64,000 nucleotides of DNA from positions 756,068 to 820,067 of the forward strand of contig OZ242168.1 in the NCBI GenBank assembly GCA_965205275.1, read 5' to 3'. Shown here piece after piece: positions 6,776-25,720 of the stretch; position 1 is the first letter of the stretch; each line of letters opens with the position of its first letter. Source of the stretch: Gammaproteobacteria bacterium. GTDB lineage: Bacteria; Pseudomonadota; Gammaproteobacteria; UBA4575. Position numbers and translations under genes: made by a program. The notes under the pieces are model-generated. The model did not search any database and was not told the DNA's origin. It saw nothing but the letters and a program-made list of their open reading frames with translations.

Positions 6776-7187
6776 TCATTCATTGCTACGAAGTGCACGG
6801 GTTTTAGTTCTGGCTTCACTGGCACGGACACTGGCTTTAGAAGCAACGGCTTCCCATTCGTTGGCAATGACCTCACATACGTGTCTCAGCAGCACGGGCA
6901 ATAGTTTCCCATCCGCGAGCAATGGCTTCCCATTCGTTGGCAATGACCTCACATACACGAGGATTGGTTCTAGAGGCGCGGGTCAAGGCTTCATCTTTAA
7001 GAGCCTTGGTCTCAGTTTCATGGGCAATGGCTTCCCATTCATGGACAACAGTTCTCCATTCACTAGCACATTTAAAATTGCCACAACCGGAAAGCATTAA
7101 ACTAGTAATGAGCAACGCACTAGCAAGCGTGATACCTTCCCTGTAATTCATATTTGGATCCCTGTTTGGTTTAGGGCGTGTTAACAC
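6776..7187 (-). pseudogene. repeat-containing lipoprotein (EWEAIA repeats); reading frame broken between repeats
   Basis: Signal peptide plus lipobox (LMLSGC). Three copies of a ...VIANEWEAIA... unit encoded across two overlapping frames (ORFs 6873..7187 and 6776..6958). Confidence 0.4.
6840..7075. repeat. tandem DNA repeat: two near-identical units about 76 bp apart plus a degenerate third
   Basis: ttcccattcgttggcaatgacctcacatac occurs at about 6851 and 6927. A degenerate copy lies at about 7035. Confidence 0.6.
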
Positions 7188-7988: not shown

Positions 7989-8513
7989 TAGTCAATCAAG
8001 GGATACTGTACAACACGGCATAGAAGCCTGCACATCTAAATCCTGGCGCAGGTTTGCCTTGCGCACACACAAAATCATCCTGCCACGCAGTGATTGAGAT
8101 CTGAACCAAGGGGTACCTCAGCCTGCCTATCCCAGTGCGTCGTGAAAAGGCTGTACTGATTTATTCGGGCTAAGCTTGGAGTGGATGCCCGAGCGCCCTG
8201 TTACACGGCTTATCGTATATCCCTGCCGCCATCCGCTATCTTGATAGTCGCTGGAGCGAGGTTTTAATTTTTTGATTTGTATATTTACCAGGGCTATTTG
8301 ATGGTACTTTTTTACAATTAGACCGAGATACCGTTAAAAATATCGTCAAATTTTCTAGCTGCTAACACATCTTGTCGGATGTAAAAAACTAAGAAATATT
8401 TATAAACTGTTATTTGTATTATACTTTATATATGGTACAGGATTTTCTGACGTTGCCGGACTCGAACTTAAAGCACAAGTTATTATTATGTAGAATATTT
8501 TATTTATTCAATT

Positions 8514-8777
8514 TTAAACTATACCGACGAAAGTACCGACAAATTCAAATTTCTCCATTTGAAAATGACGCTCGTTCTCCTTTCTTAGCTGCCTGAACTC
8601 CCTTACATGGTCCGGCTCAAGCCCACTATAGTCCTTTTCCCAACGATAAAGTGTCGCTTCCGATATCCCCAATTTGCGGCACATACCGCCTATCGATGTA
8701 CCGCCCTCATGTGTCTTGACCGCGGCCACAACCCGTTCAGCCGAATAGCGCTTTCGTGCCATAATGCTCCTCCCCAT
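8514..8777 (-). pseudogene. IS3 family transposase OrfA remnant (3' truncated)
   Basis: HTH region ...GISEATLYRWEKDY... typical of IS3 OrfA. The ORF runs into unrelated AT-rich sequence. No orfB follows. Confidence 0.6.
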
Positions 8778-8885
8778 TCCAAGGAATCATCATGTCAGCT
8801 TTCGCACGCGGTCTGATACAAATTATGGGAAGACCACCAGGACCAATACATTATTGCCATTCAAATTGATTTATTAGGAGGGGGT

Positions 8886-9386
8886 ATGAAAATTAAACGA
8901 GCTGGTTGTATAGCAGTTACCCTAGGACTCATGTTGTGTACAAACGGCGTCTATGCCGAAAAGCCAAGTGACGCGGATGCACTCAAAGGAATAAATGAAG
9001 GCAATGTTATATGGGACGTAACTGTCGGAAGTCCAAGCAAACTTTTATTTTTATTAAAAGTTATTGAAGAAACATATGATGATCTTGAAAAGCAAAATGT
9101 AAAACCAGACATGGTTTTCTTATTTCATGGACCAGCAATGAAGTTAATTTCGACAAATCCATTGGATTTACCTCTCGATGAGGAAGAAGCCCATGAAGGA
9201 GTACTTGAGTTGATAAAAAAGATAAGCAAACTGCCAGGCGTCAAAATGGAATCGTGTTCAATAGCTGCACGCATATTGGACATTGACAACGACACCATCA
9301 TTTCAGGAATAAAGCCAGTTGGAAATACCTTTGTGTCGCAAATTGGTTATCAGAAAAAAGGGTATGCAATGATTCCAATTAATTAG
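8886..9386 (+). CDS. secreted DsrE/DsrF-like (COG1416-like) protein
   Basis: 166 aa. N-terminal signal peptide. C-terminal region ...VKMESCSIAARILDI...GYAMIPIN resembles the DsrE/YchN-fold family with a conserved Cys. AT-rich gene. Confidence 0.45.
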   Translation: MKIKRAGCIAVTLGLMLCTNGVYAEKPSDADALKGINEGNVIWDVTVGSPSKLLFLLKVIEETYDDLEKQNVKPDMVFLFHGPAMKLISTNPLDLPLDEEEAHEGVLELIKKISKLPGVKMESCSIAARILDIDNDTIISGIKPVGNTFVSQIGYQKKGYAMIPIN

Positions 9387-9402
9387 GCAGATATCCTGCC
9401 TA
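9384..9402 (+). terminator. possible hairpin at the 3' end of the DsrE-like gene
   Basis: taggcag-atatc-ctgccta, a 7-bp stem overlapping the stop codon. No strong U-tract follows. Confidence 0.2.
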
Positions 9403-9510
9403 CTGAACTTGATCTAGGTTTGGATGCGAAACACTCATGTCGGTTTCACATTGGAGGATTATGGTCCGCAAGCGATTCAGTGAATCGGAGATCACCAATA
9501 GCGTGTAACA

Positions 9511-9744
9511 TTAATTTTTTACGTCTGCTTCAATTGTAAATAGGCCAAGCACAATCATTAACATGGCTGCGTATGCTGCAGCTCTTGCTCCGTGGTAAAT
9601 AAATGTAGGTATTACAGCCATTAATAGAAGCGGTACATAAAATTTCAATATAAAAGCGACAGCAAATCTTTTTGCTCGCTTCAGTATTTGTGCCACCCTT
9701 CCTCTCTTAATACCCTTTAATATTTCTGCACGACTATCCCACAT
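9511..9744 (-). CDS. small hydrophobic membrane protein, hypothetical
   Basis: 77-aa ORF with two predicted TM helices. AT-rich. Confidence 0.3.
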   Translation of the reverse strand: MWDSRAEILKGIKRGRVAQILKRAKRFAVAFILKFYVPLLLMAVIPTFIYHGARAAAYAAMLMIVLGLFTIEADVKN

Positions 9745-9832
9745 TATGGGCGATCGATTGATCTTTCCCCCGTAACCCGATCCACTTTATGTGAGGGATT
9801 TTCCTATAATTTGAACCTTAGGAGGTCCCAAG

Positions 9833-10099
9833 ATGAAAGGCAAACGATTTACCGACGAGCAGATCATTTCGATCCTGAAAGAGCATGAGGCCGGCGCCAA
9901 AATGCCAGACCTGGTACGTAAGCACAATGTAAGTGAACAGAGCGTCTACCGCTGGAAGTCGAAGTACGCTGGTATGGAAGTCTCTGAGGCCAAACGCCTG
10001 AAGGAACTGGAGAGCGAGAACACTAAACTCAAACGTCTACTGGCGGATACGATGCTGGATAATGCGGCATTAAAGGAACTGGTCGGAAAAAAATTTTAA
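9833..10099 (+). CDS. IS3 family transposase OrfA
   Basis: 88 aa. HTH (...[14 protein letters not shown]...) and leucine zipper. Confidence 0.85.
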
Positions 10100-10134
10100 C
10101 GCCCGCTGCCCGTCGCCGGGGTGTTGAGCATCTG

Positions 10135-10911
10135 GTGACGGCCAACCTTGCCAGTCAGCGGCGGGCGTGTCGATTGGTGGGCTTATCTCGCTCAGTCATG
10201 CAGTATCGACCGAGACCTAAGCACGATAAAGTCCTGTGCCAACGACTGAAAGAGCTGGCCACGCAGTATCCGCGTTATGGCTACCTGATACTGCATGGAC
10301 TATTGGCAGCGGAAGGTCTGGTTATCAATCGCAAGCGCACCTACCGACTGTATTGTGAGGCGAATCTACAGGTGAGAACACGACGACGGAAGAAGCTGAT
10401 ACGTCCCAGGATACCAATGATGATACCGGATGGGCCGGGGCAACGTTGGTCACTCGACTTTGTCTCTGACCAGTTGGCTTCAAGTCGGCGCTTTCGGGTG
10501 TTAAACATCATCGATGACTACAGCCGGGAATGTATTGGACAGATTGTAGATACCTCAATATCCGGTCTTCGATTGGCAGGGTTTCTGGAAGAGATCGGAA
10601 CGCTTCGTTCCTTACCAAAAACTATTGTGTGCGACAACGGTAGCGAACTGACCAGCAAGGCGATGTTCTTCTGGTCACAACAAAGCGGTGTGAAACTGCA
10701 TTTTATTCAACCGGGCAAACCCACTCAGAATGCGTTCGTGGAATCGTTCAATGCCCGCTTTCGAGATACCTGTCTCAATCAACATTGGTTTCGCAATCTG
10801 CCTGATGCACGATGCATCATCAATGACTGGCGACGCCACTATAACTATATACGACCACACAGCTCACTTGGCTACGTACCACCGGCTGTATTCGCACAAC
10901 AAGCAGCATGA
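10135..10911 (+). CDS. IS3 family transposase OrfB (integrase/rve core)
   Basis: Contains an HTH_21-like N-terminus, the DDE region (...WSLDFVSD...) and the C-terminal [10 protein letters not shown] motif. Expressed by a -1 frameshift from orfA. Confidence 0.85.
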
Positions 10912-11018
10912 TATGATAATTTTTCCCTCACCAGGAATGGATCTAATTCAGGGGAAAGATCACGATATCAAAAGCAGTGAAGGTATAGGGTCGGTGGAGG
11001 CATAGTTTGGGGTGATTG

Positions 11019-11441
11019 CTAGGGCGTACCTGAATGCAAACTAAAAAATAAAAACAGCACAACCCCTGCTAAGATTACCACCCAAAATACAAGCTTGGGC
11101 AACACTTCATACAGTTCTTGCATCTGCATGTTTTTTTGATGTTGCTCCAGTTCCCGTGTCGCCGTATCTAGCTCGTCATTCAATGTATTTGTTATCCTCG
11201 TCGCCTCACGCAGTTGCTTCGAGTACTTCTCCGCTGCTTCTGGACCTATTTCCTTCACAAGCCTTTTCATCACTCCCCCATCCGCCTCCGCGAGCTTGCC
11301 CATATATTCCGAATCCATTTCCCCTAAGAGCTCCATTGTTTTTTCTGGACCCATTCGCTTCAGGAACCTTACCGCTTCTTCTAAATCCATTTGCCTCAGA
11401 AGCTTGATCACTCGTTCCGAATCGCCGTATTCCTGTTTCAT
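11019..11441 (-). CDS. hypothetical coiled-coil protein with C-terminal TM anchor
   Basis: 140-aa ORF in the AT-rich island. No recognisable motif. Confidence 0.3.
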   Translation of the reverse strand: MKQEYGDSERVIKLLRQMDLEEAVRFLKRMGPEKTMELLGEMDSEYMGKLAEADGGVMKRLVKEIGPEAAEKYSKQLREATRITNTLNDELDTATRELEQHQKNMQMQELYEVLPKLVFWVVILAGVVLFLFFSLHSGTP

Positions 11442-12012
11442 ATGTCACCTTTGGCACACCGATAATACTTTGTATTGTGGTCAGCGCTATTACTGATTGG
11501 TAAGTATCCAAGCTTAACCTCAAGGTCAGTAGAAATTTTGAGTGTTGATTTACACATAAAACCGGCCCTGGTTTAGAGTGAACCCTTGGTAGTGGAATAG
11601 CGTGCTTGTGGCTCTCCATGCTTCTAGCGCACTATCAATCACTGGATAACCGGCTTCCTGTTCCTGAAACCATCGTTCCTACTCTCTCTCAAAACCCAGT
11701 GCGTACTAGGGGGTCTTGATACATGGAGAATCGTATCTATTTAAACTTTCTAGGTTGTTGTGCAACCATGTCTAAGAAAACCGGGTATGATTCCTGACAT
11801 CTGATCCACATATTTATCTATACCTACTTTGACCTGGCTCCATTCATCTGGAGTAATCGTATTCAGGTTTTTAGGCTTAAATCCTTTATGTATCGTGACA
11901 GAACGCAGTTTCTCTTGTTTTCTAAATGCCTTACACTCTGCAGCATTAGTAGGGGTATGTAATATAAAGATATCAGTATCAAATGCTGCCACCGACCAAT
12001 ATCTTTTAAGTC

Positions 12013-12483
12013 CTAAAAAGCTTCTTGAAAACAGGCCAGATGCTTCTGTTGTAAACGACGTACAAGGACCCCCGTACATTCCAGATAAGCTATCACTTCT
12101 TGCTCTTTTGCCACCACAACGGCATCTAATCCAAGATCTACTGTTAGTTTATTAAATATCTCCTTCTTAGTTTCGTTTACCCTCCATTCGCCATTCTTAT
12201 ACACGATGAATTCATGAACATCCTCAAATGAAATGCCCTCTTTATCCAAATTGACCACGCTAAACAAATCTTCATTGGTAAGACTATCGTTCAAATTATC
12301 TTCAACCAGTTCCTTTAAAGGCCATATTTGATCTTCGTACGTCTTCTCAAAATTGTTGAATATAGTAGTGCCTATATGGGTGTGTACGGGATGTTCTCCA
12401 GCCTCCACAAGGACCCCGATTTTGCTTCTCGGTTGAATCTGAAACTCTGTAACTTCTGGAATACCCGTTACGTGTTTTAGCAA
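12013..12483 (-). CDS. hypothetical protein
   Basis: 156-aa ORF. May continue into the overlapping ORF 11750..12079 through a frameshift. Confidence 0.3.
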   Translation of the reverse strand: MLKHVTGIPEVTEFQIQPRSKIGVLVEAGEHPVHTHIGTTIFNNFEKTYEDQIWPLKELVEDNLNDSLTNEDLFSVVNLDKEGISFEDVHEFIVYKNGEWRVNETKKEIFNKLTVDLGLDAVVVAKEQEVIAYLECTGVLVRRLQQKHLACFQEAF

Positions 12484-12906
12484 TGTCCCGGATCCGCTGC
12501 TTCAATGCTACCTGCTCCACCCTGCGTGACCGGTACACCCAGGTCGAACGAGGCAGACGCAGCACCCCGCATGCCCGTCGGCCACTCACCCCAAAACAGT
12601 CCATCAACCAGCGCGCCAGTTCCTTCAGTCGCGCCGGCCTCAAAGCTTTTTTCGAATCACCTCCTGTAACATCTGACGGTCCAGACTCAACTCCGCCACC
12701 ATCTGCTTCAAACGACGGTTCTCATCCTCCAGCTCCTTCAAGCGGCGCACCTCAGAGGGCGCCAACCCCCCGAACTTCTTCTTCCACCGGTAAAACGTCT
12801 GCTCCGATATCCCCAGCTTGCGGACCACTTCCGCCACACTCATTCCAGCCTCATGCTGGTGCAGCGCATAGGCGATCTGCTCCTCGCTAAACTGCGACTT
12901 CTTCAT
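12347..12906 (-). pseudogene. IS3 family element remnant: intact orfA plus the N-terminal part of orfB only
   Basis: OrfA (12640..12906) has the HTH ...GISEQTFYRWKKKF... OrfB starts (MRPARLKELARWL...RACGVL...) but similarity ends at about 12480. No DDE core. Confidence 0.7.
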
Positions 12907-13048
12907 GCAAAAACCTCCTCACCCCACAGGGGCATCTTAACGAGAATTTTCACACTATGCCTGGACCAGTTTATGGGGAGAAGACCAAGTAGCCGCCACC
13001 CCGGTGTCTCCTTACGGAGTTATAGTCGCTGGTGCCATTGGGCATCAT

Positions 13049-13312
13049 TCATTTTTCGCGCTCGTCCAAGCGGTCGAGCATTTTATCAATGAGTATCGTG
13101 GCTTGCTTGCGGGTTGTGCCCTCCAGATCCGGGTAATCCTCGTCGAGTTGCATTGCTAAGCTCATAATTTTGGTCTCCTGTTTCCTGGTTATCTTGTCAT
13201 GATGCGTCTCGTCCAGCGCATGCTCCCGGCCCCTTGCACGTCCTATCAAATAGCTGACCAGAAACAGGGAGCCCACGAGAACCCCTGCAAGCAAGTACAC
13301 ATAAATGTCCAT
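13049..13312 (-). CDS. hypothetical protein with N-terminal TM helix
   Basis: 87-aa ORF. Confidence 0.3.
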   Translation of the reverse strand: MDIYVYLLAGVLVGSLFLVSYLIGRARGREHALDETHHDKITRKQETKIMSLAMQLDEDYPDLEGTTRKQATILIDKMLDRLDEREK

Positions 13313-13473
13313 AGGTCCCCTTTTGTTTAATTCCTGTGCCTAATTAGTCATGCAAACTCTTTTCCGGTCGCAGGATGCCATATACGCCTCAAAAAAGGCC
13401 GGTCTGAATCTGACATAGTACTCATCCCCATACGCTCGCCTGAGCGAAGTAGCAGCGATATAGCATTGACATC

Positions 13474-13968
13474 CTATTTCCCGCAAGCAGATAAAGCCTT
13501 TCTGATAGGACTGGCGGAACCTATTAGCCCAAAAAATACAGTACTCTCTAACATTCCAACATCGGTTCTAAATACCGCTTCTTCCTTTCCTGTAACCAAA
13601 GCATTGGCAAACCGTTTCGCATACTCACCAACAGCCATTAGAATATTAGGTCGGAGAACCCAATTCTCACTTACCACTTTCCCCTTATCTATTCTGTACT
13701 TTACAGGCACTAACATCTTCTCCGGAATGGGGATATGCAAATAGTCTTTTACCTGCATCGTCACTGACAGTTCCTTACTACTGTCAATAAAGCAATAAAT
13801 ACCAACCCAAGCGCGATCTGTGGCGCTCCTCATACCTGTCCTCACCGCATCAAACTCCAATGTAGCATCTACATTTTTCTTGCCGGTTATCTCATCCGCA
13901 GTTTCTCTATATTTCCACTCTGCGGAAGCATTACCAAATACCAGCATCATGGCCAGCGCAAAAGCCAA
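13474..13968 (-). CDS. hypothetical secreted protein
   Basis: 164-aa ORF. N-terminal signal-like hydrophobic segment ending ...ASA. Confidence 0.35.
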   Translation of the reverse strand: MAFALAMMLVFGNASAEWKYRETADEITGKKNVDATLEFDAVRTGMRSATDRAWVGIYCFIDSSKELSVTMQVKDYLHIPIPEKMLVPVKYRIDKGKVVSENWVLRPNILMAVGEYAKRFANALVTGKEEAVFRTDVGMLESTVFFGLIGSASPIRKALSACGK

Positions 13969-14236
13969 TCCTGGTCATGAGCGCGGTGTCTCTCTCTCAT
14001 ATTGCTATATTTGATTTGCCAGGTTCAATTTTTCAATACTATCGTAAATAAGTCCCTAAAAATTTCTTAGTATCTAGTGACTGGTGTTCGTCCCCTCTTT
14101 GTGGCCCGTGCCGGCCGGAGCTATTCGCCGTCAACACTGATTCATCCCAAAGCGCAATGAACCACCTTCCTCCTGGGACTCGAAAAATGTATTTAGTCTA
14201 TTGAATTTTATACATATTATTAAAATCAATTTTCAA

Positions 14237-14560
14237 TTATACCGCCACAAGTACCGACAACATTAAATTTGGGGAATTATATATTTTACTTGCCAATCGA
14301 TTTGTGCGGTCTGTGCACGCATCCGCATTTACACGCAGGTACTCCTCGATAAACATGTCTGTGTGCTTTGCCACCCAATGTAAAACATATTCTGGATCTG
14401 CATTGTGCTTTCTTTTGATCATGAAATAAGCGTTGTCAGACCAGTCCGGCTCCCACGTTATAATATAACCCGATTCACTGGTGGCATTATCTGTTACTCT
14501 TTTCCTGTAGCTGGTGTGTATATTAAATTTGTCATGCTCCAACAACAGTGTCAGATACAA
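14237..14560 (-). CDS. hypothetical protein
   Basis: 107-aa ORF. Its 3' end runs into direct-repeat copy B. Confidence 0.3.
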   Translation of the reverse strand: MYLTLLLEHDKFNIHTSYRKRVTDNATSESGYIITWEPDWSDNAYFMIKRKHNADPEYVLHWVAKHTDMFIEEYLRVNADACTDRTNRLASKIYNSPNLMLSVLVAV

Positions 14561-14651
14561 CGCGGGAGAAACTAAGTTGACGGGCGATGGATAGTATAAT
14601 CCCGCATCTTTCTGAATCGCCCCGGGTTTACCGGAGACTGTTTAGTTTGAG

Positions 14652-15547
<896 letters not shown>

Positions 15548-15548
<1 letters not shown>

Positions 15549-15868
15549 TACCTCGGTCGGCGGTCGAACTCCGCCTGGGCGAAAAAAGCCGCTGCCTTTC
15601 GCAAGATCTCATTCGCCCGCTTCAGTTCGCGTACTTCACGTTCCAGTTCCTTGAATTTCTGAGCGTGATCCGTCGTGAGACCGGACCTCCCTCCCTGATC
15701 AATCTCCACTTGTCGAATCCACTTTCTCAGTGTTTCCGGCGTACAGCCGATCTTTCCAGCAACCGATTGCGTTGCAGACCAACGCGATGAATGTTCATGT
15801 TCGCTGGTGAATACCAATCGAACCGCTCGTTCCCGTACTTCCGGGGCATAGACAGGTTGTGTTTTCAT
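15548..15868 (-). CDS. IS3 family transposase OrfA
   Basis: 106 aa. HTH (...IGCTPETLRKWIRQ...) and coiled coil. Confidence 0.8.
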
Positions 15869-16022
15869 AGGCTAATCCTCTCAAAGGTTTTAGCCTCCGA
15901 CAATACCGGGGCGATTCACTTTCACTGAGGAGCAATGTACGAGAAGTGAGCATATACCTATTGTCTGAGACTGCTGTCACTAAAAAGGCAAAACCCATAA
16001 CTGTTCAACGATTGTTGACCAG

Positions 16023-18149
16023 TTAGCGACCAATGCAGCAATGCTTGAACTTCTTTCCACTACCACAATAACAAGGGTCATTACGCCCTATCTTCGGTTT
16101 ACGTTTCATCTTTCCAGACTTCTTTGCAGCCCACCCTTCTGCTCTACGCGTCATCACTGGATCAACTTTCCACTTACCAACCAGTTCTGTACCCAATAGA
16201 ACAGATCCCTCTGGTGTTAAGGCAAGGCCGAACCAACTGTTAGCCCGCTCTGTATATTTCCTAAATTCGCAGTGCTGCTGCAGCCTAGACTCTACCCTGC
16301 TGTACGAGTCTCGGCTGCAGTGGATAGTCAAGCCAGAAGATAATTCTGAAATACCAATGACCATGTTGTGAAAGCTCCCATCTTCACCACATCGTTTCAA
16401 CACTTCTTCAGTGTATTCATTGATCTTTTTAACTGTACCCTCGCTTAGCTCCAACAACATGAAACCAAGATTGATTGCTACCGGCTCCGCCTTATACTCA
16501 ATTTCAGAAATGATACTTTCAAACCTTGTTCCAGCGAACCGGGTCAATATCCCATCCGGCGTCTCACAACCTGGAATGCCTAAACGCCTTACTGACATTG
16601 CAAGATCGAGATCCGATGACACATCATCAGCGATCTCCACTAGATCCATATTATTTTCAAACCACAAATTCCGTTTTAGGTGGTACGCTAGAACCGCATG
16701 CTCATGGTTTGTCATAATCTGATTACTGTAGCGAGCTCGAAAACTAAGGTAACTAAATAGCCTCAACGGGGAAGCCAGCATTTCGGTGACAGTATCTAGT
16801 GTAAAGACATCGGTAACGAGTGGCGGCACGATTTGCTCAGTTGATTTAACTTCTAAGAAGTGTCGAGTCTGAAAGGCCAAGGCCGGGTAGTGATCAGCTA
16901 CAACCGCTATAGGGAAGATGGTGTGAGGAGATGCAGACAGTAGGACTGGAATTCCGTCTCCGCAACTCAATTTAACAGCGGGATCGCAAAGCAATTCTGC
17001 ACACAAAAATGCCTGATCAACTGCAGTCTGTACTGCCTTTTTAAAGTCCTCTCGCAATACTTGGTCGTTACCTCTCCGCGCTTCGAGTGTCAGCCGTTTC
17101 GACTTCGCTTGCACGATAATGACACGATCCCCAAGTATTACTAAAACATCTATCTCTCCTAAGATTTCACCCTTTGTTTTTTGTATTTTTACGTTCTGGA
17201 AAACTCTCTCGGACCAAAATACATGTGACAACCTTTCGGCTGTGAACGATTCCGTGAAACTCCCTCGATGGCTAAACGCATCAGGTGTATATGAAGCATC
17301 GGCACACATCCAGTAGAACGGAGTCTCATAAAATGCCTCTGTTAGACCGTGGTATTGTAAAAGAATGTACTCATCGGCTCCATATTGGATGAATGGATAG
17401 GCATACGCTGCATTGAACGCACTTAATGAAGTAAAAGTGGAATTTCGCTCGTTTTCAGGCAATACAAAGGCTTTTACAAATGCCCTTACATCATCAATTG
17501 GTTGACCAATATAGCGAGAAAGTTCTTCACAAGAAAAAATAAATCCGGGGAACAGAGTCCATTCCTCAGGGGGAGTACCCCTCAAAGCATCAAGTGCTAC
17601 ACAAAGCCGTTGACTCAAAATTTCGGCAATACCTTGGCAAACAGATCTGCCTATATTCAAGCGGAGATTTTTGTTCTTTAGAAGCCAATCAGAATCTGCT
17701 TCGTATTTGCGAGGAGCAAGATCATGGTACTGAAAGGGATAGGCTGATTCTCCACCATAAAAGATTGGTTCGCGGAGGAATTGCCCAAACGTGTATTGAT
17801 CAGTATTGGATGAGACAACACTATCAGTACCAAGGTGGCCCGAAGGAGGTAGCATTTTTTGGTGGAGTTCTTCCAATAAGGTTTCGGACCGCTGAAGATA
17901 GTGGGAAAGAATCTCAGGTTCTGGAAGAGAAAAGTCTATCGGACCGCGCATGGTGAGACCGATAAGTGTTGTGATCTCAGTTCGGATCAGACGCGACTGT
18001 GAACGCATCCTATTTAAATCTTCGGGAGACAGAACATCTGCGAAATTAACAGCTGTATCACGAAAGCATATATAGGCAATGGTGTGAATAAATCCCTTTG
18101 AGATACAAAGGGAAGCCAATTCATTAAAAACAGCCTGCTCGGTGCGCAT
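16023..18149 (-). CDS. large hypothetical protein with a NERD/PD-(D/E)xK-like core and a C-terminal SEC-C zinc-binding motif
   Basis: 708 aa. GEIDVLVILGDRVIIVQAKSKRL resembles the NERD / restriction-endonuclease-like D...(E/Q)xK core. The extreme C-terminus DPCYCGSGKKFKHCC is a SEC-C motif. Gene is AT-rich relative to its surroundings. Confidence 0.45.
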   Translation of the reverse strand: MRTEQAVFNELASLCISKGFIHTIAYICFRDTAVNFADVLSPEDLNRMRSQSRLIRTEITTLIGLTMRGPIDFSLPEPEILSHYLQRSETLLEELHQKMLPPSGHLGTDSVVSSNTDQYTFGQFLREPIFYGGESAYPFQYHDLAPRKYEADSDWLLKNKNLRLNIGRSVCQGIAEILSQRLCVALDALRGTPPEEWTLFPGFIFSCEELSRYIGQPIDDVRAFVKAFVLPENERNSTFTSLSAFNAAYAYPFIQYGADEYILLQYHGLTEAFYETPFYWMCADASYTPDAFSHRGSFTESFTAERLSHVFWSERVFQNVKIQKTKGEILGEIDVLVILGDRVIIVQAKSKRLTLEARRGNDQVLREDFKKAVQTAVDQAFLCAELLCDPAVKLSCGDGIPVLLSASPHTIFPIAVVADHYPALAFQTRHFLEVKSTEQIVPPLVTDVFTLDTVTEMLASPLRLFSYLSFRARYSNQIMTNHEHAVLAYHLKRNLWFENNMDLVEIADDVSSDLDLAMSVRRLGIPGCETPDGILTRFAGTRFESIISEIEYKAEPVAINLGFMLLELSEGTVKKINEYTEEVLKRCGEDGSFHNMVIGISELSSGLTIHCSRDSYSRVESRLQQHCEFRKYTERANSWFGLALTPEGSVLLGTELVGKWKVDPVMTRRAEGWAAKKSGKMKRKPKIGRNDPCYCGSGKKFKHCCIGR

Positions 18150-18390
18150 TTATCAATGATACTTTCGTAGAAAATCAAATCTAACGGTTCGTCAGTAGAG
18201 CAAGACAACTTCATTCACACTAGAATCGAGAGTGAAATTTTCTTTTACAGTTGTGGTCGCAGTATTCCCCGAAGAATCATAACTCCTTATCCTTGTTCTA
18301 TTTTGATACTTACTTTATGGCCAATAATCTATCATTCCTAACCCTATACATTTGTAGTTCAAGATCATTGAAAGCTCTTTATTTGGACAG

Positions 18391-18999
18391 CTACTGGCCA
18401 TCGGCCAGATCCATTCCTGCGGCAGAAAACAACTGAAGCATGCGGCCAATCTCGGTAGGCGCCAGAGTTGTCGTCAACTGGGCCTGAATCTTGGCAACCA
18501 TTTCATGTAACGTCAGAATAGTGATTCGATTACCTCCTAGTGCATTGTGAAAAGGTAGGTGATTCTCCCAAATACTCTTCTCACCCTTGCAGTGTGTAAC
18601 TGCAGTAACATAGGTAAATCGATCTTCGCCCGTAGCATCCTTTATAGCCTTAAGAAAAGCTTCCGACCACTTTGGAACCGTTAATTCACGGAAAGCTCTC
18701 CATGCATCCCGACCTCCAAGGTTCTTCTTTTTTTCGATCGCGTCAATTGCGGAAGCGGGATTGAATCCTTCTTGCCAACTCTTGCAGCTGACAGCCATAA
18801 CTTTTTGCTCACCTTCTTTCTTTGGATGGTATCCAAGGACATCAATATCGCTGTGATTAGAATCCTGTTTGCTGACAAAGTCCGGATGGTCTTTGCGTGG
18901 CAGAAATTTGATGTTGTGTTGCACAAAATAGCCCTTGTGGACAAGGTACTCCTCCACAATCTGCTCGAGGATATCTTCCTTGGTTGCCAACTTAGTCAC
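18391..18999 (-). CDS. hypothetical protein, possible PD-(D/E)xK-fold nuclease
   Basis: 202 aa. SDIDVLGY...GEQKVMAV fits a D-x(n)-ExK arrangement. Weak call from motif only. Confidence 0.3.
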   Translation of the reverse strand: MTKLATKEDILEQIVEEYLVHKGYFVQHNIKFLPRKDHPDFVSKQDSNHSDIDVLGYHPKKEGEQKVMAVSCKSWQEGFNPASAIDAIEKKKNLGGRDAWRAFRELTVPKWSEAFLKAIKDATGEDRFTYVTAVTHCKGEKSIWENHLPFHNALGGNRITILTLHEMVAKIQAQLTTTLAPTEIGRMLQLFSAAGMDLADGQ

Positions 19000-19337
19000 C
19001 CTCAGAATAATTCATCTACTTTAGACTTTATCAAAAACAGCTTGGATAATTTACAAATTTTGTCTAGTGGACATCAGACATTTCTGTCGTTTGCTAAAGT
19101 TGACACATGCTTCCAGATAACTTAAAAAAACTTAGTCAAAGGAGTTTCTGGACCACTAGTGTCTTCTCCTTATGGGGAACTATAAGAACTCGAGTTAAGC
19201 AAGCTTATATCGTTGCCATGTGACGGCCACAAAGATTTGATTATAGTTTAGACTCGCGAAAAGCAATCCAAGAAAGGACATGCTGGAAGTCATTAGACCG
19301 GCCTGCGCATCAGAGCCAGAATTGAAACAATTGCCGA

Positions 19338-19784
19338 ATGGGTAAACAGAAGCACAACCGACAGCGCAAAAGGCAGCCAGTTGCCCTGTGTGCACTCTGC
19401 GGAAAGATCAAAAAGTTATGCAAATCGCATATCGTTCCGAAGTCCTTTATTCGGGAAGTGCGTGCTCACTATAAACAATTGCACTGGTATGACCTTAGGA
19501 AGAAACAAAAACCGATATACACGCAGGATGGATGGAAAGAGTACCTTCTGTGTAATACCTGTGAGCAACGTATCGGGCAATGGGAAAAGGTGGTGTGCGA
19601 AGATCTGCGTGGTGATGGTAAAGCCAGCGCGACTTGGAAAGAAGTTTCGTACGACGGTCCAATTTTGATTCCACGAGGTGTCAAACGACCCACGGGTTAC
19701 TACCTGAAAATGGAAGGCTGCGATTACGACTCGTGGCGGCTGTTCCTGCTATCATTGCTATGGAAAATGGACAAATCAAGACTA
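19338..19784 (+). pseudogene. HNH-like zinc-finger protein gene, 3' end replaced by IS insertion
   Basis: N-terminal C-x2-C ... SHIVPKS ... C-x2-C is a ββα-Me/HNH-like arrangement. The last roughly 12 codons of the ORF (LGRVNTNVTHRR) are encoded by the inverted repeat of IS copy B. Confidence 0.45.
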
Positions 19785-20599
19785 GGGCGTGTTAACACTA
19801 ACGTAACGCATCGACGATGAGCGCGAAGACAATGAATCCGAGGAATACCACGTCGAGTTTCTCGAATCGCGAGAAGACACGACGGAACCCCTTCAATCGA
19901 CGGAATAACCGCTCGATTTCATTGCGCCGCTTGTACATCTCACGGTCGTATTCCCAAGGCTCGACCCGCGTTCGCAATGGCGGTACCACTGGCTCATACC
20001 CCAGCGCCAAGGCCAGTTGTCGAGTCTCGTTGCCTTCGTACGCGCGGTCCATGATCAGTGAGGGAGTATCGTGCTGCTGACCAAGGCGATTCAGCAACTT
20101 ACGCCCTTCCGGGGCATCGTGGGCTTGTCCCGGCGAGAGCGAGAACGTGATGGCGGTTCGAGCATCTGCGGCAACCATATGAATCTTGGTGGTCCAGCCG
20201 CCGCGAGAGCGGCCGATGGATTGGGGGCCGTTTTTTTTAGCGCCCCCGTCCCATCGGGATGCACCTTCACAATAGTGCTGTCCATCGACATCGCCTCGAG
20301 TTTGATGCGCACGATCTGTTCTCGCTGCAGATGCTCGAATACTCGGTCGAGCACTCCGTTCTTCGACCAACGGTTCATTCGGGTATAGATGGTGTGCCAG
20401 TTGCCAAACCGTGTAGGTAACCCTCGCCATTTGCAGCCCTGTTCGGCGACATACAGTATGGCGTTGAGTACTTGGCGGTTCGAAAGGCTGACGTTGCCGC
20501 GCTGCACCGGGAGATGTAGCGCGATGCGTTCGTATTGGGCTTGGGTCAGTTCCATCCTTGGAGGATACCATAACTGTGCCCATTAGTGTTAACACGCCC
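19785..20599 (-). mobile_element. IS5 family (IS427-group-like) insertion sequence, copy B, identical to copy A
   Basis: Encodes the same proteins as copy A (7174-7988). Same 17-bp inverted repeats, TA on both flanks, same orientation. Start coordinate taken from the ORF-track offset. Confidence 0.85.
19798..20555 (-). CDS. IS5-family transposase OrfAB (copy B)
   Basis: Identical to the copy A ORFs (orfA 20091..20555, orfB 19798..about 20250). Confidence 0.75.
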
Positions 20600-20677
20600 T
20601 AGACGGCCTGTTGAAAAAGTCCTTTTGCATAGGCAGTTTGGTAGAATTGAAGGAGTAACTTCAATCACAGGAATTCT

Positions 20678-21400
20678 CTATGCAAGGTAGGCATTCAGCC
20701 CAGATGAAAGTTTGATGCCTGAATAGAGCAATCCCGCGAGGTTACGGTTTCCGCCTTGATGCGTGAGCCAATAAGAACGAGTGTCTGCCCGAACACCTCT
20801 TGCGAGGTCATCTACAAATTTCCAGAATGCGTCCTGATCTTTTGGCCTGACCGCGTATACGAACAAAGCGGCGACCCCCGGCTGTTTGCTTTGAACGTAC
20901 CGGGTCAGAACTTTGGACAAACGATCCATGTCAGTCCGATAGAGCCTGTTGTCATCCGCATCGCCATGCTCGCTGTAACTCATCGGATCCATGGTAAACA
21001 GCCAGGGTGTTTGAAGGTCGTTCGGACATGCCAGTATACCGCCAGGACCCACTTGCTTGCGCCACGACGCACAAACCGGGAGGACGCGTGAACCGGACCA
21101 ATCATCAAGCAGTGATTTATGTTTGGCGCAACAGGTTTCCGTAATGCCACCGGACAGCTTGTCCTTTCCGATGACAGTGCGCAGCAGTTCTGCCGTGTTG
21201 GGATAATGCTCCTTTGATGCGTTCGTTTCTCGGTACGCGCTCACGAGCGCCGGTTCATTGGATTGCTGCGGTGCACTTGAGGCCTTCAAGGCGCCCTCAA
21301 GCTTATTGCAGGCTTGTTCTGGCTTTCGCTTTTCAAGTGTCTCGAAAGGTGCCATCCCATGTGTAAGGGCAATATGAAGTGGTCTACTAAATCCGGACAC
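20678..21400 (-). CDS. hypothetical protein
   Basis: 240-aa ORF convergent with the disrupted HNH-like gene. Only a vague resemblance to the RlmJ/DUF519 family (..DPMSYSE...GVAALFVYAV..), which I do not trust. Confidence 0.3.
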   Translation of the reverse strand: MSGFSRPLHIALTHGMAPFETLEKRKPEQACNKLEGALKASSAPQQSNEPALVSAYRETNASKEHYPNTAELLRTVIGKDKLSGGITETCCAKHKSLLDDWSGSRVLPVCASWRKQVGPGGILACPNDLQTPWLFTMDPMSYSEHGDADDNRLYRTDMDRLSKVLTRYVQSKQPGVAALFVYAVRPKDQDAFWKFVDDLARGVRADTRSYWLTHQGGNRNLAGLLYSGIKLSSGLNAYLA

Positions 21401-21437
21401 CGAGTTAAGGCATTAAACTGCCATAACGAGGTGAACG

Positions 21438-21731
21438 ATGACAATAGAAACGACAAAGAGACGGAGCTACACGGAAGCGTTCAAGCGGGAAGCGGTAGCG
21501 CTGGTAACAGAGCAGGGTTACAAGATTTCGGAGGCGGCGAGGAGCTTGGATATTGGCGCGAATTTGTTACGTCGCTGGCGCCGGCAATTTGAAGAGGAAG
21601 CCTCGGGAGCGCGCCTGAGTATGGATGAGCGTGAGGAGTTGAAGCGGCTGCGCAAAGAGGTCCGCAGCTTGCGGCTAGAGAAAGAGATTTTAAAAAAAGC
21701 GAGCCAGTACTTCGCGAAGGAAATGAAGTGA
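21438..21731 (+). CDS. IS3 family transposase OrfA
   Basis: 97 aa. HTH ...KISEAARSLDIGANLLRRW... and leucine zipper. Confidence 0.85.
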   Translation: MTIETTKRRSYTEAFKREAVALVTEQGYKISEAARSLDIGANLLRRWRRQFEEEASGARLSMDEREELKRLRKEVRSLRLEKEILKKASQYFAKEMK

Positions 21732-22594
21732 AGTACGGATTCATAGGCAGGCATGCAGGCCGTTACCGGGTGACGATGCTGTGCCGTGTACTGGGGGTTC
21801 AGCGTAGCGCGTACTACGCCTGGCGAGGGCAGCCAGGCAAAGCCATTGAACCGCAGGAGCTGGCGTTGCGGGGGCGCATGAAAGCGCTATTTGCGGCCTC
21901 TCGCGGCAGTCTGGGCAGTCGCATGCTGATGAACAACCTTAACCAGGAAGGCTTTCAGATTGGTCGTGAGCGCACGCGTCGTTTGATGAAGACACTGAAT
22001 CTGAAGGTCAGACACAAGCGCAAATACAAGGTGACGACGGACCGCAAGCACCGGCTGCCGGTCGCGAAGAACGTGTTGAACCGCGCGTTCTCGCCATCGG
22101 CACCGAACCAGGCCTGGGGCGCGGACATCACCTATCTGTGGACGCAGCAGGGCTGGATTTATCTGGCCGTGGTCATTGACCTGTATTCCCGACGCGTGGT
22201 GGGTTGGTGCATCGACCGGCGCCTGAAAAAAGCGCTGGTGCTGCGTGCTTTGATGATGGCGATCAACCTGAGAAAACCGCTGCCGGGTCTGCTGCATCAT
22301 TCCGACCGAGGCAGTCAGTACGCCAGTCATGACTATCAGCGATTGCTGAAACAGCACGGCATAATCTGCAGCATGAGTCGCAAAGGTAATTGCTGGGACA
22401 ATGCCCCGGCAGAGCGATTCTTCAGCAGCCTGAAACGGGAATGGACCGGTGATCGCTGGTACCGAACCCGGCAGGAAGCGATTGCCGACGTGCGCGAATA
22501 CGTGGCGGTGTATTACAACTCGAGACGCTTGCATTCCACGCTTGGGTATACAACACCGATGGATTACGAAAACGTCCTTAACAACGTGTCCTAA
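21728..22594 (+). CDS. IS3 family transposase OrfB
   Basis: 288 aa. rve integrase core (...WGADITYLW...[11 protein letters not shown]...), C-terminal LHSTLGYTTP. Confidence 0.85.
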   Translation: MKYGFIGRHAGRYRVTMLCRVLGVQRSAYYAWRGQPGKAIEPQELALRGRMKALFAASRGSLGSRMLMNNLNQEGFQIGRERTRRLMKTLNLKVRHKRKYKVTTDRKHRLPVAKNVLNRAFSPSAPNQAWGADITYLWTQQGWIYLAVVIDLYSRRVVGWCIDRRLKKALVLRALMMAINLRKPLPGLLHHSDRGSQYASHDYQRLLKQHGIICSMSRKGNCWDNAPAERFFSSLKREWTGDRWYRTRQEAIADVREYVAVYYNSRRLHSTLGYTTPMDYENVLNNVS

Positions 22595-22764
22595 ATCGGT
22601 TGACCACTACAGAAATATAAAAACCTAACGCCACCATCAGCATCAGCCAATTAGCGTTCGCAGCAGAGGGGTGCAGAAAGATTTGTTACACAGGACGCGG
22701 ATTCTGTGATACGATTACTATGTAATCATTATGAACCGCACTGAACTGAGAGGACTATAAACAG

Positions 22765-23004
22765 ATGGGAACAGAGGCATTTAGTGTCCGGACGGACAGC
22801 AAGAAGGTCAAGCAGCTTGACAAGCTTGCAGAGTTCCAGGAGAGGTCACGCAATTACCTAGTCAACCAGGCAATCGACCAGTTTCTGGAGCAGCACGCCT
22901 GGCAGGGCGAGCGCACCAAAGAGGGGATCAAGGCCGCAGATGAGGGCCGATTCGTTAGTGATGCCGATATGGAGCACTTATTCAATAAATACGAAGAAGC
23001 CTGA
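22765..23004 (+). CDS. parD: ribbon-helix-helix antitoxin (ParD/CopG-like)
   Basis: 79 aa. N-terminal ribbon-helix-helix pattern (FSVRTDSKKVKQLDKLA). Sits immediately upstream of a ParE/RelE-like gene with a 3-bp gap. Confidence 0.65.
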   Translation: MGTEAFSVRTDSKKVKQLDKLAEFQERSRNYLVNQAIDQFLEQHAWQGERTKEGIKAADEGRFVSDADMEHLFNKYEEA

Positions 23005-23006
23005 TT

Positions 23007-23294
23007 GTGCGTGTTCGTTGGACCGAACCGGCGGCACGAGCACTGAATAGTATTCAGGATTACATCGCTAGGGGGAATCCGAGGGCAGCGTTTGGAATCG
23101 CACAACGAATACGGATTGCTGTCAGTCAGCTCGAAAAACATCCGAAAATCGGCCGAGCCGGTCGAGTCCGGGGTACATATGAGCTGGTCATACATGGTCT
23201 TCCATACATCGTGCCGTATCGCATCAAGAAGAAGGAAGTGCAGATTCTCACTGTGTATCACACATCGAGAAAATGGCCAGAGGCATTCGAATAA
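23007..23294 (+). CDS. parE: ParE/RelE family toxin
   Basis: 95 aa, basic. ParE-like organisation (...YRI...EVQILTVYHTSR...). Paired with the upstream antitoxin. Confidence 0.65.
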   Translation: MRVRWTEPAARALNSIQDYIARGNPRAAFGIAQRIRIAVSQLEKHPKIGRAGRVRGTYELVIHGLPYIVPYRIKKKEVQILTVYHTSRKWPEAFE

Positions 23295-23343
23295 GCGTGT
23301 AATGAAGATTTTTTTGCGGAATTCCCTAGATTAAGGTCTTTTG

Positions 23344-23526
23344 TTAATCATCACTAGACACAACATGAGCGCAAAATCCGCATAGACCTTTACCAGTTCT
23401 AAAGAAAATTTCCCTTTCACCATACGGAATTTCATTACCACAACGTAAGCACTTCCAGTTTTCAATATCACATTTTGCAAGCCATTTTTGCTCGGTATCA
23501 ATGAGTTTGTCTTTTAGGGTTCCCAT
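23344..23526 (-). CDS. small zinc-ribbon protein (two C-x2-C pairs)
   Basis: 60 aa. CDIENWKCLRCG...CGFCAH. Confidence 0.3.
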   Translation of the reverse strand: MGTLKDKLIDTEQKWLAKCDIENWKCLRCGNEIPYGEREIFFRTGKGLCGFCAHVVSSDD

Positions 23527-23662
23527 GTTTTAATTCTCTTCACATACACTTAATAGTTCCCAATATATATCTAGGAGCTCTTCATTAAAGCTTGGGGCAT
23601 CCCGTCACGGGAATCGCCGCCTATTTTTGTCCAGGCTCTGCTCGCCTTTTTAGCACTGTCCT

Positions 23663-24028
23663 TCATCTGCCAAAAGATAGGTTTGAACCCATCACGGGGG
23701 AAACAGCTAGATTAGGATTTTCAAGTATATGTGTATGCAAACGCAATAATGCAATTTGATAATCCAATAACCCCGGATATGCAACTGCGTACATATTTGC
23801 TTCTTGTTGCACTTCATCCAGTTCGACCCTATTTTTTAGCGCACGAAAAAGGCTGTCTATCTGGGATTGCTGATACTCATGTGCAGGGCTTTGCCTACCA
23901 ATGCAACCAGTAATAGTATGGCTATCAGGCATGGATTGATTTTCATCATTTTCTCCTTCGTTATCACTCATCAAAATCAAGGTCGAAGTCCGCATTTTTC
24001 TTTGGGTATGCTCTTTGGGTCTGCGCAT
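23663..24028 (-). CDS. hypothetical protein
   Basis: 121-aa ORF. No motif recognised. Confidence 0.25.
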   Translation of the reverse strand: MRRPKEHTQRKMRTSTLILMSDNEGENDENQSMPDSHTITGCIGRQSPAHEYQQSQIDSLFRALKNRVELDEVQQEANMYAVAYPGLLDYQIALLRLHTHILENPNLAVSPVMGSNLSFGR

Positions 24029-24259
24029 AAATTCATCCTATGCTAGTTGTGAACCCTTGTGAGTTACAGTCCTCTGGACGATAAGTTCACGCGCTTCTTT
24101 TGGACAGGAAAATATACTACTTGAATCAGATTATAATAGAGTCATAAGACTCAGTTTCATTAGTTACCTGACCAATTAAAACGCTGGTTTTATAGAAAAT
24201 AAATAGCGAACATGCCTCCTGTTTTTAGTAATACAGAAAGTAATACTTTGCTATTTTTA

Positions 24260-25720
24260 CAATCAGAAATAGAGCTATTGTCAAATCTGGTGTATGCCGA
24301 TGAAATCAAGCGGCAACCTGGTCTGATTGTTCAATTTCTTCTCCGTTAATAAATTTCACGCCTTCAACAATCTTCGCCAGGTATGCAAAGCCGCGTAGTT
24401 TTCGCCAGTTCTTCTCAGCGCACTGGCCAAGCTTGAACATCATGTGCAATAAACTGTCGCGCGTCATACAGCCTTTTGTTCGTGTCGTACGATGACGGAT
24501 GGTGGCAAAGGTCGACTCGATCGGATTGGTCGTTCGAAGGTGCTGCCAGTGCACTGCGGGAAAATCATAGAACGTCATTAACGATTGCCGATCCTTGAGC
24601 AGGCAGTTGGTCGCCTTCGGATACCTGGCTTCATAGGTGACGATAAACTGATCAAAAGCCTGCTCGGCATGCTCGCGGGTGGCGGCCTGCCAGATCTCGT
24701 GCAGCGCCGATTTGGCTTTCGGCTGAACGCTCTTTGGCATCGCGTTGAGCACATTGCCGGTCTTATGCATCCAGCAGCGTTGTTGACGGGTCGCCGGGAA
24801 TACTTCCTCGAGCGCCGCCCAGAAACCCAGGGCACCATCGCCGAGCGCCAGTTCCGGGGCATTCATGCCGCGTGTCTTCAGATCCAGCAGCACTTCGCGC
24901 CAACTCTGTGTTGACTCCCGAATGCCGTCCTCGATCGCCAGAAAATGCTTGTCACCACGCGCGTTGACGGCCACGATTACCAGCGCGCACAGCCGCTGGC
25001 GATCCGCTCTCAGGCCACTGTAGATACCGTCCGCCCAGATATACACCCAGCGATCGTGGCCTAAACGACGACGTCGCCAGCTCTCGTATTCCTGCCGCCA
25101 CGTCTGCCTCAGGCGCGATACCGTACTCGCCGATAAACCCTTGGCTTCGGCGCCCAGCAGCACTTCCAGCGCCGGCTGCATCTCGCCGGTGGAAATCCCC
25201 TTCAGATACAGCCATGCCAGCGCCGCTTCCAGACTCGCGGTCTTGCGCACATACGGCGGTACCAGCGCCGAGTGAAAACTCACCGGCTTGCCGTCACGGC
25301 TGCGTATCTTCGGTACCTGCACCGTTACCGGGCCAATGCCGGTCTGAATGTCTCGCGCCGGCTGATAGCCGTTCCTGACCACCGCCGTACGACCCACCTC
25401 ATCTCGCCGCCCAGACAACGCCGAGAGTAGTTCACTAACCTCTAATTCCAGACCCTGTGCAATCAGCTTGTGTGCTCCGTCGCGGATTAACTCCGTCAGC
25501 TCGTCACGGATCTTCTCTCGACCTGATAATGCGACAACGTTATGCTTACTCATGGTGGCGTATCTCCTCAGTTGAATGAATTGCTTCGTAACAACCATTT
25601 CAACCAGATATGCCGCCTTTTTTCAATTCAGCCGTACACCACTTTCGACCATAACTCGCCAAACGCAATGAATACTTAAAGCTACTTGCTGACAATATTG
25701 ACCCCATAGAGCACAAGCTT
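24260..25720 (-). mobile_element. IS256 family insertion sequence (ends approximate)
   Basis: Mutator-type transposase gene. Imperfect terminal repeats containing ...tgacaata... lie near both ends. Confidence 0.65.
24306..25553 (-). CDS. IS256 family (mutator-type) transposase
   Basis: About 415 aa from MSKHNVVAL. The conserved IS256 C-terminal ...HLRTTNPIESTFATIRHRTTRTKG... is present. Confidence 0.85.
   Translation of the reverse strand: MSKHNVVALSGREKIRDELTELIRDGAHKLIAQGLELEVSELLSALSGRRDEVGRTAVVRNGYQPARDIQTGIGPVTVQVPKIRSRDGKPVSFHSALVPPYVRKTASLEAALAWLYLKGISTGEMQPALEVLLGAEAKGLSASTVSRLRQTWRQEYESWRRRRLGHDRWVYIWADGIYSGLRADRQRLCALVIVAVNARGDKHFLAIEDGIRESTQSWREVLLDLKTRGMNAPELALGDGALGFWAALEEVFPATRQQRCWMHKTGNVLNAMPKSVQPKAKSALHEIWQAATREHAEQAFDQFIVTYEARYPKATNCLLKDRQSLMTFYDFPAVHWQHLRTTNPIESTFATIRHRTTRTKGCMTRDSLLHMMFKLGQCAEKNWRKLRGFAYLAKIVEGVKFINGEEIEQSDQVAA

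Follow-up and report, generated by a model that had tools for sequence, protein, structure and literature searches.

Upx (PDB 9wuf; PMC13099982, PMC13601566) is a single-protein PD-(D/E)xK anti-phage nuclease and terminase sensor of about 1,240 amino acids (aa), in which the nuclease core, with an ExK motif, lies at the extreme C-terminus. ZwsA (Zowangsin; bioRxiv 10.64898/2026.04.06.716636) is a stand-alone NERD RNA endonuclease directed against RNA phages, in which the NERD domain is the catalytic centre (E, D, ExK); the protein by itself proved sufficient for defence. HEC-02 (bioRxiv 10.1101/2024.01.29.577857) consists of an ABC ATPase and a NERD protein that work as a pair, with defence confirmed by experiment, and the same paper gives (D/E/Q)xK as the hallmark of NERD. 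Rugutis (PMC11381338) is a single-gene lactococcal defence protein of 359 aa that has SEC-C at its N-terminus and for which no nuclease domain was reported. Here we describe a 708-aa protein that resembles each of these in part. It is encoded in a 64-kb stretch of DNA from a gammaproteobacterium (contig OZ242168.1; the whole stretch is called the window below), for which a preliminary description, made from the sequence alone, had pointed to an AT-rich cluster of three nuclease-like genes between insertion sequence (IS) elements. With moderate confidence, we read window positions 15919-19782 as a piece of a mobile accessory segment that resembles a defence island and is trapped between IS elements in an IS-rich chromosome, in which three genes are independent of each other and the 708-aa protein is a stand-alone nuclease effector. 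The features of this protein are the following.

16023-18149, minus strand: 708-aa open reading frame (ORF) from the ORF listing; intact gene for a predicted stand-alone NERD-family PD-(D/E)xK nuclease with C-terminal SEC-C.
16989-17267, minus strand: NERD nuclease core, residues 295-387, with E300, D334 and Q347-x-K349.
16035-16085, minus strand: SEC-C zinc-binding motif, residues 689-705, with Cys693, Cys695, Cys704 and Cys705.

ORFs were called across the window, and Pfam, NCBIfam and PADLOC v2 models were run on the proteins of the locus. The 708-aa protein matched NERD (PF08378) with 25.5 bits over residues 295-387 (gathering cut-off 22.1) and SEC-C (PF02810) with 35.1 bits over residues 689-705 (gathering cut-off 20.4), and no further Pfam domain was found in it at E<=1. 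The NERD-like D...(Q/E)xK core proposed in the preliminary description was borne out by this match and by the family alignment of 33 sequences, in which E300, D334 and Q347-A-K349-S-K351 were unchanged throughout. QAKSK was kept in 118 of the 120 best relatives, and many homologues carry precomputed NERD matches. The terminal SEC-C zinc motif suggested at the same time was likewise confirmed, both by the Pfam score and by the presence of its cysteine ligands: the C-terminus carries the sequence CYCGSGKKFKHCC, and the CxC...CC residues listed above were read off the protein sequence. Because only 69 of the 120 closest relatives carry this tail, SEC-C can be regarded as an optional appendage of the family. 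The label "giant" was not apt for a protein of 708 aa. The gene is intact and constrained by purifying selection, since it is 98% identical to the homologue P0001 and has a ratio of nonsynonymous to synonymous substitution rates (dN/dS) of 0.23; this ratio was obtained against L001 (ENA ERZ28763718), a metagenome contig that carries the same island. An exact-protein look-up of the product returned no record.

The predicted structure of the 708-aa protein has a restriction-endonuclease-like fold. The predicted layout comprises an N-terminal helical region, a probable winged-helix domain, the NERD PD-(D/E)xK core, a helical and alpha/beta C-terminal region, and the optional SEC-C. Upx (9wuf) was the sole significant Foldseek match of this model among solved structures. 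When the 708-aa profile was compared with the PDB by sequence, it matched the C-terminal peptides of SecA and YchJ by way of SEC-C; for the bodies of all three protein families of the locus no PDB sequence relatives were found, this peptide being the sole match. The preliminary description had proposed to look for nuclease folds by structure prediction, and such folds were indeed predicted for both the 708-aa protein and the small 199-aa protein discussed below. The profile searches that it had also proposed gave a divided result, with NERD and SEC-C above their cut-offs and Mrr_cat and HNH below them.

The 708-aa protein differs from each of the described systems. Whereas the Upx core is C-terminal and has ExK, the core of the 708-aa protein lies in the middle of the protein, has QxK and is followed by a SEC-C tail. 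The NCBIfam Upx model (NF042954) gave no match to it at E<=1, and the profile of the 708-aa family does not find 9wuf. ZwsA is, like the 708-aa protein, a single multi-domain protein with a NERD domain. Compared by its description, ZwsA combines VHS, DUF647 and S4 with a NERD core at about 535-582, whereas Pfam found none of VHS, DUF647 and S4 in the 708-aa protein. The NERD effector of HEC-02 shares the (D/E/Q)xK form of the motif, but HEC-02 comprises two genes, the second one for an ATPase partner, while the 708-aa family has no conserved partner and no PADLOC HEC match. Rugutis shares SEC-C, but in the 708-aa protein this motif is C-terminal and accompanied by NERD. No PADLOC v2 system gave a full-length component match to the 708-aa protein, and the earlier statement that no named defence system could be assigned therefore holds for the PADLOC and NCBIfam models. 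A restriction-modification (R-M) system was rejected as well, as no methyltransferase domain was present in the ORFs scanned between 12 and 24 kb of the window and hence no cognate methyltransferase beside the nuclease; this agrees with the absence of a methyltransferase partner noted in the preliminary description, and the 708-aa family as a whole lacks a conserved neighbour. By sequence and domain content, the protein belongs to two Pfam families, NERD and SEC-C, and not to Upx, ZwsA, HEC-02 or a PADLOC v2 system. The family is known only under generic domain names and would, as a candidate, be a new architectural variant of single-protein PD-(D/E)xK defence nucleases.

A search of 5.8 billion proteins gave more than 2,242 relatives of the 708-aa protein at E<=0.001, most of them full length at about 700 aa. 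Their occurrence is sporadic: in a scan of one genome per species, relatives were present in 289 of 185,579 species. The closest of these were found in Arenicellales (76% identity), and others in Gamma-, Alpha- and Betaproteobacteria, Desulfobacterota, Acidobacteriota, Nitrospirota, Cyanobacteria, Bacteroidota and Planctomycetes. Relatives were also present in 34 plasmid records (22 of them conjugative), where they are annotated just as 'SEC-C', 'NERD' or, wrongly, 'prepilin peptidase', and on six viral or prophage-like contigs; the phage-genome collection held none. The 1,016 ORFs neighbouring the gene at 83 loci fell into 938 clusters, and since no cluster occurred in more than 7 loci, we conclude that the family has no conserved partner. 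Among the 146 nearest neighbours were integrases (4), AbiEi (3), LmuB (3), HipA (2) and Fic (2), together with BrxL, a GmrSD/HNH enzyme, RhuM, a TrwC relaxase, a resolvase and YhaV. At one locus (L003) the homologue stands beside CBASS and a type ISP restriction-modification enzyme. Genes at a distance of 7-10 kb also matched PARIS, CBASS cyclases, HEC-01 and AbiL, which suggests embedding in islands. The horizontally acquired defence setting of the preliminary description thus stood as far as homologues do lie beside CBASS, R-M, BREX, AbiE and Lamassu genes, integrases and relaxases. Lack of a conserved gene neighbourhood and of any link to defence islands had been named there as evidence to the contrary; we found no conserved neighbourhood, but the surroundings of the homologues were rich in defence and mobile genes. 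One homologue, P0072 (L002:8001-10745), is a two-nuclease fusion variant of 914 aa with an N-terminal HNH_5 domain (E 9e-13), and adjoins a type I R-M operon.

We consider the 708-aa protein a plausible candidate for a single-gene nuclease defence system, by analogy with described proteins and because CBASS, type I and type ISP R-M, BrxL, AbiEi, LmuB, GmrSD/HNH, HipA, Fic and integrases are found among the neighbours of its homologues. The HNH_5 fusion of P0072 beside a type I R-M operon points in the same direction, as do the facts that NERD proteins defend in HEC-02 and ZwsA and that SEC-C occurs in the validated Rugutis. The protein would then need no partner gene for its action on incoming nucleic acid or mobile elements, and its helical, winged-helix and C-terminal domains may, by analogy with Upx and ZwsA, keep the nuclease inactive or recognise the target. 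A further-reaching proposal, which we put forward as tentative and rather unlikely in its full form, is that the NERD/SEC-C family of about 700 aa represents a widespread anti-phage system of a single gene, new to science and related in structure to Upx but more compact, in which the non-catalytic domains sense a conserved phage protein or nucleic-acid intermediate and release NERD, and in which the optional SEC-C tethers or regulates. If the family does defend against phage, present defence finders overlook a nuclease system that is widespread and needs one gene only. It would also provide a smaller and easier-to-study relative for Upx, which the Upx authors describe as structurally unique.

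Several observations weigh against the 708-aa protein being a nuclease effector in defence. The acidic position of (D/E)xK is Gln in this family, which is usual for NERD, and activity of this variant is a prediction. The likeness to Upx is one of fold only, with a global TM-score of 0.35. In PADLOC v2 and NCBIfam only the SEC-C tail of about 20 residues matches (in PADLOC residues 674-706, against PDC-S12 and CBASS E2 models). PADLOC models are matched no less often by genes 7-10 kb away than by the nearest neighbours, a comparison that has no clean background control, and some homologues sit amid efflux, transport or metabolic genes. The literature searched contained no experiments on any member of the family.

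These observations leave some room for a different role, in which the 708-aa protein would serve the mobile elements that carry it (in maintenance, addiction or competition between elements), or DNA repair or recombination, and not immunity. We regard such a role as possible, if clearly the less likely one. It would fit the 22 of 34 plasmid matches that lie on conjugative plasmids, the integrases, resolvase and TrwC relaxase among the nearest neighbours, the contexts that hold no defence genes, and the fact that no defence-system model recognises the protein. However, sporadic spread across phyla together with frequent R-M, CBASS, BREX, Abi and Lamassu neighbours is typical of defence genes, and a repair role predicts vertical inheritance and conserved synteny, neither of which is seen for this family.

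The favoured reading of a stand-alone nuclease effector also implies that the genes found beside the 708-aa gene do not form a system with it. The three ORFs reported in the preliminary description were recovered with coordinates from the ORF listing, and the remaining features of the segment are as follows.

14613-15918, minus strand: IS3-family element, left bound of the segment, with terminal inverted repeats TGAATCGCCCCGG at 14613 and 15918.
18391-18999, minus strand: 202-aa ORF (probably 199 aa) from the ORF listing; small protein with a predicted PD-(D/E)xK fold, the gene being a chimera of two paralogues.
18784-18793, no strand: crossover interval between the 5' part of the gene, from paralogue B, and its 3' part, from paralogue A, placed by the sites that distinguish the L001 copies.
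19338-19820, plus strand: 160-aa ORF from the ORF listing; the gene part ends at 19782 and is followed by IS sequence.
19338-19782, plus strand: 5' fragment of a 275-aa gene of a Cys-rich superfamily, pseudogene; 148 codons, with the reading frame running into the IS to 19820.
19783-20602, minus strand: IS5-type element of 820 bp with DUF4096 and DDE_Tnp_1 ORFs and terminal inverted repeats of about 19 bp.
L001, gene order: HTH-HipA, lambda Ea47-like, 392-aa, 275-aa (minus strand), 199-aa copy B, 665-aa UDG-superfamily, 199-aa copy A, 708-aa, CoiA-like, integrase fragment.

The history of the segment could be reconstructed by comparison with L001. Window 15919-18996 aligns with L001 9154-12231 at 97.5% and window 18278-19779 with L001 4897-6399 at 91%, and the two BLAST alignments overlap on the 199-aa gene. 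The recurrence of the segment, at 91-97.5% DNA identity, in an island with HipA, Ea47, CoiA-like and integrase genes agrees with the earlier reading of horizontal acquisition. In L001 and in L175, a contig from a different sample, two 199-aa paralogues flank a UDG-superfamily gene of 643-665 aa (L001:5686-9759). At the sites that distinguish the two L001 copies, the window matches copy B at all but one position from 19100 down to 18793 and copy A at all positions from 18784 down to 18278. Because copy-B sites switch to copy-A sites at 18793/18784, the 199-aa gene of the window is a B/A recombinant of tandem paralogues. Recombination between the paralogues removed a 2.7-kb interval with the 665-aa UDG-superfamily gene, and it set the 199-aa gene beside the 708-aa gene's own upstream copy. 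L175 has the undeleted order 199B-UDG-199A-708, followed by IS3, and L176 contains just one 199-aa gene, with a core outer-membrane gene next after it. The window ceases to be homologous to L001 precisely where IS3 and IS5 begin, on the left at 15919, and the CoiA-like gene of L001 was found nowhere in the window. The locus is an IS-eroded patchwork remnant of a defence-island-like segment, and it illustrates island remodelling, in which paralogous small genes recombine with loss of cargo while the margins are cut by IS elements. The 199-aa paralogues, which stand upstream of two different large genes, could be recombination borders for cargo exchange.

The gene between the paralogues (L001:6564-8561; L175:5471-7402) encodes a protein of 643-665 aa. 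This protein has a UDG-superfamily domain at its N-terminus (Pfam E 3e-8) and some 480 further residues that have no match, and its context is defence-island-like. No homology was found between this protein and the 708-aa protein, although in L001 each follows a 199-aa paralogue. PADLOC gave no match for the L001 genes encoding the 665-aa UDG-superfamily, 275-aa, CoiA-like and 392-aa proteins.

We then considered whether the 199-aa and 708-aa proteins, with or without the 275-aa protein, could form a lineage-specific nuclease system in which the small protein is a sensor, partner or antitoxin. The two genes are co-oriented and 241 bp apart, they are adjacent in the window, L001 and L175, and the second 199-aa paralogue that precedes the UDG-superfamily gene in L001 and L175 gives the impression of a repeated 'small gene + large effector' arrangement. 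Against this, no relative of the 202-aa or 160-aa ORFs was present within 10 kb of the 708-aa relatives at 80 genome loci, and no relative of the 708-aa or 160-aa ORFs near those of the 202-aa ORF at 79 metagenome loci (flanks up to 8 kb, often shorter). No conserved neighbour of any kind was seen, and the 199-aa gene occurs alone beside a core gene in L176 and amid metabolic genes in L177. All cases of adjacency belong to one closely related island; outside the lineage of the window the 199-aa family was never found beside a 708-aa relative among the surveyed loci. A three-gene or two-gene system was accordingly rejected on the lack of co-occurrence in 159 independent loci and of a conserved neighbour, and we consider a lineage-specific system improbable. 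The three genes are independent mobile accessory units and do not make up a conserved three-gene unit. The "combination" seen in the preliminary description dissolves in the same way, as adjacency in the window arose by deletion between paralogues.

It is similarly doubtful that the locus is merely a decaying relic whose intact ORFs are leftovers, without current function, in an IS-eroded region: one of the three genes is truncated, both ends of the segment are cut by IS elements, a neighbouring gene was lost by recombination, the surrounding 18 kb hold at least six IS copies or fragments and the 708-aa gene of L175 is called as two pieces, but the 708-aa and 199-aa ORFs of the window are full length with all family-invariant residues, the dN/dS of the 708-aa gene given above counts against a relic, and the split seen in L175, whose label gives 2x coverage for the contig, may have arisen in sequencing. 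This L175 gene (L175:8842-10969) is called as ORFs of 360 and 363 aa, and may represent either a frameshift allele or such an error.

Within the favoured reading of three independent genes, the small protein would be a separate, FokI/Mrr-like nuclease-fold protein, present here as a recombinant of two tandem paralogues. The gene probably encodes 199 aa and not 202 aa, the likely start being the TTG at 18990, which gives the length of all homologues. Its model has a FokI/Mrr-like PD-(D/E)xK fold, as in the FokI cleavage domain and the Mrr-like AF1548, whereas the Mrr_cat profile (PF04471) scored 13.1 bits against a cut-off of 21 (E=0.1). The PD-(D/E)xK-like assignment of the preliminary description thus received support from the predicted fold but not from the profile. 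Its 'EQK' did not hold up as a conserved motif, for E64 and Q65 vary in the family and D51, D53 and S71-C72-K73 are invariant instead. In Cfr10I-type enzymes, an SxK form of the motif is known in which the acidic residue is relocated. The 199-aa protein further differs from FokI and AF1548 in having D51/D53 ... S71-x-K73 in place of D...(D/E)xK, and in having neither a recognition domain nor a partner. PADLOC v2 gave no match for the 202-aa protein, and the NCBIfam Upx model (NF042954) reached 10.9 bits (cut-off 1900). Conservation within the family is high, and its members are normally solitary: 468 neighbours at the 79 metagenome loci formed 379 clusters, without a conserved partner. Around these genes lie IS elements, type I HsdR, PRiA4_ORF3 and DUF2130, in addition to the plain metabolic genes of L177.

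The 160-aa ORF is a pseudogene, a defunct 5' remnant of a 275-aa gene that IS5 has interrupted. Residues 1-149 share 90.6% identity with the intact gene (L001:4511-5338), the last 11 codons come from the IS, and the missing 127 codons at the 3' end were found nowhere in the window. The loss of the 3' end to an IS, as originally described, was confirmed, with homology to the intact gene stopping at 19779-19782, at the IS5 copy. In contrast, the 'HNH-like' assignment of this gene lacked profile support, as HNH_5 matched the 160-aa ORF with E=0.41 and only one of 40 superfamily members with E=0.02, and the HNH and His-Me finger profiles PF01844 and PF14279 gave no significant match for the ORF or the 275-aa family. 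The N-terminal pattern, invariant or nearly so in the superfamily (C18-x2-C21, S30-H31-x2-P34, Q63-x-G65 and C72-x2-C75-E76), makes a His-Me-finger-like zinc module possible. No Pfam family covers the intact 275-aa protein or the superfamily, and PADLOC v2 gave no match for the 160-aa ORF. A relationship of the ORF to the HNH_5 domain of P0072 was not significant by BLASTP, and none was found to the CoiA-like neighbour in L001. The close family of the 275-aa protein has 15 members among 5.8 billion proteins, and its neighbours vary. In a profile search of 1.84 billion representatives, the wider superfamily, of about 250 aa, comprised 3,430 at E<=0.001, and 1,586 when the threshold was E<=1e-10.

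The flanking elements were as the preliminary description had them, an IS3 and one of two identical IS5 copies, on the evidence of transposase domains, inverted repeats and identity of the copies. The IS3 element has 13-bp inverted repeats and ORFs with HTH_Tnp_1 (15548-15868) and rve/rve_3 (14652-15308). The copy at 19783-20602 is 100% identical over 820 bp to that at 7172-7991 in a self-comparison of the window, and both were assigned to the IS5 type because of their DUF4096 and DDE_Tnp_1 transposase ORFs. The segment between the IS elements has 44.1% GC, compared with 51.2% for the whole window, 53.5% for the right-hand 38 kb, 45-46% for the non-IS sequence on the left and 55-56% for the IS elements. 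Since the left non-IS sequence and the IS elements have these values, AT-richness is real but modest, weaker than first described, and in part a contrast with GC-rich IS elements. A promoter and terminator scan of the locus was uninformative, with counts no higher than the shuffled expectation, the plasmid collection held no near-identical DNA of the locus, and no tRNA genes, as possible island attachment sites, were present in the window.

Some minor features of the surroundings may be mentioned. For a 240-aa ORF at 20678-21400, which separates the IS5 copy from the following IS3, neither Pfam, NCBIfam nor PADLOC gave a match, and none of the fetched loci contains a relative. Just past this IS3 lies a type II toxin-antitoxin pair (22765-23294) with a ribbon-helix-helix antitoxin of 79 aa and a ParE toxin of 95 aa. 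A 39-bp direct repeat (97% identical; 6842-6880 and 6918-6956) stands just upstream of the first IS5 copy, and the gene of an 819-aa fn3/Ig-repeat protein has an internal direct repeat of about 230 bp (76% identical; 29112-29342 and 29736-29970). Window positions 7172-25598 are very dense in IS elements: besides the two IS5-type copies there are IS3-type elements near 10135-10911, 14613-15918 and 21438-22594, a fragment of IS3 orfA (12640-12906) and a transposase of the Mutator/IS256 type (24306-25598). Taken with the fn3/cadherin-repeat and autotransporter proteins at 26-30 kb and the relatives in sponge-associated metagenome-assembled genomes, this density suggests a host-associated genome, possibly that of a sponge symbiont.

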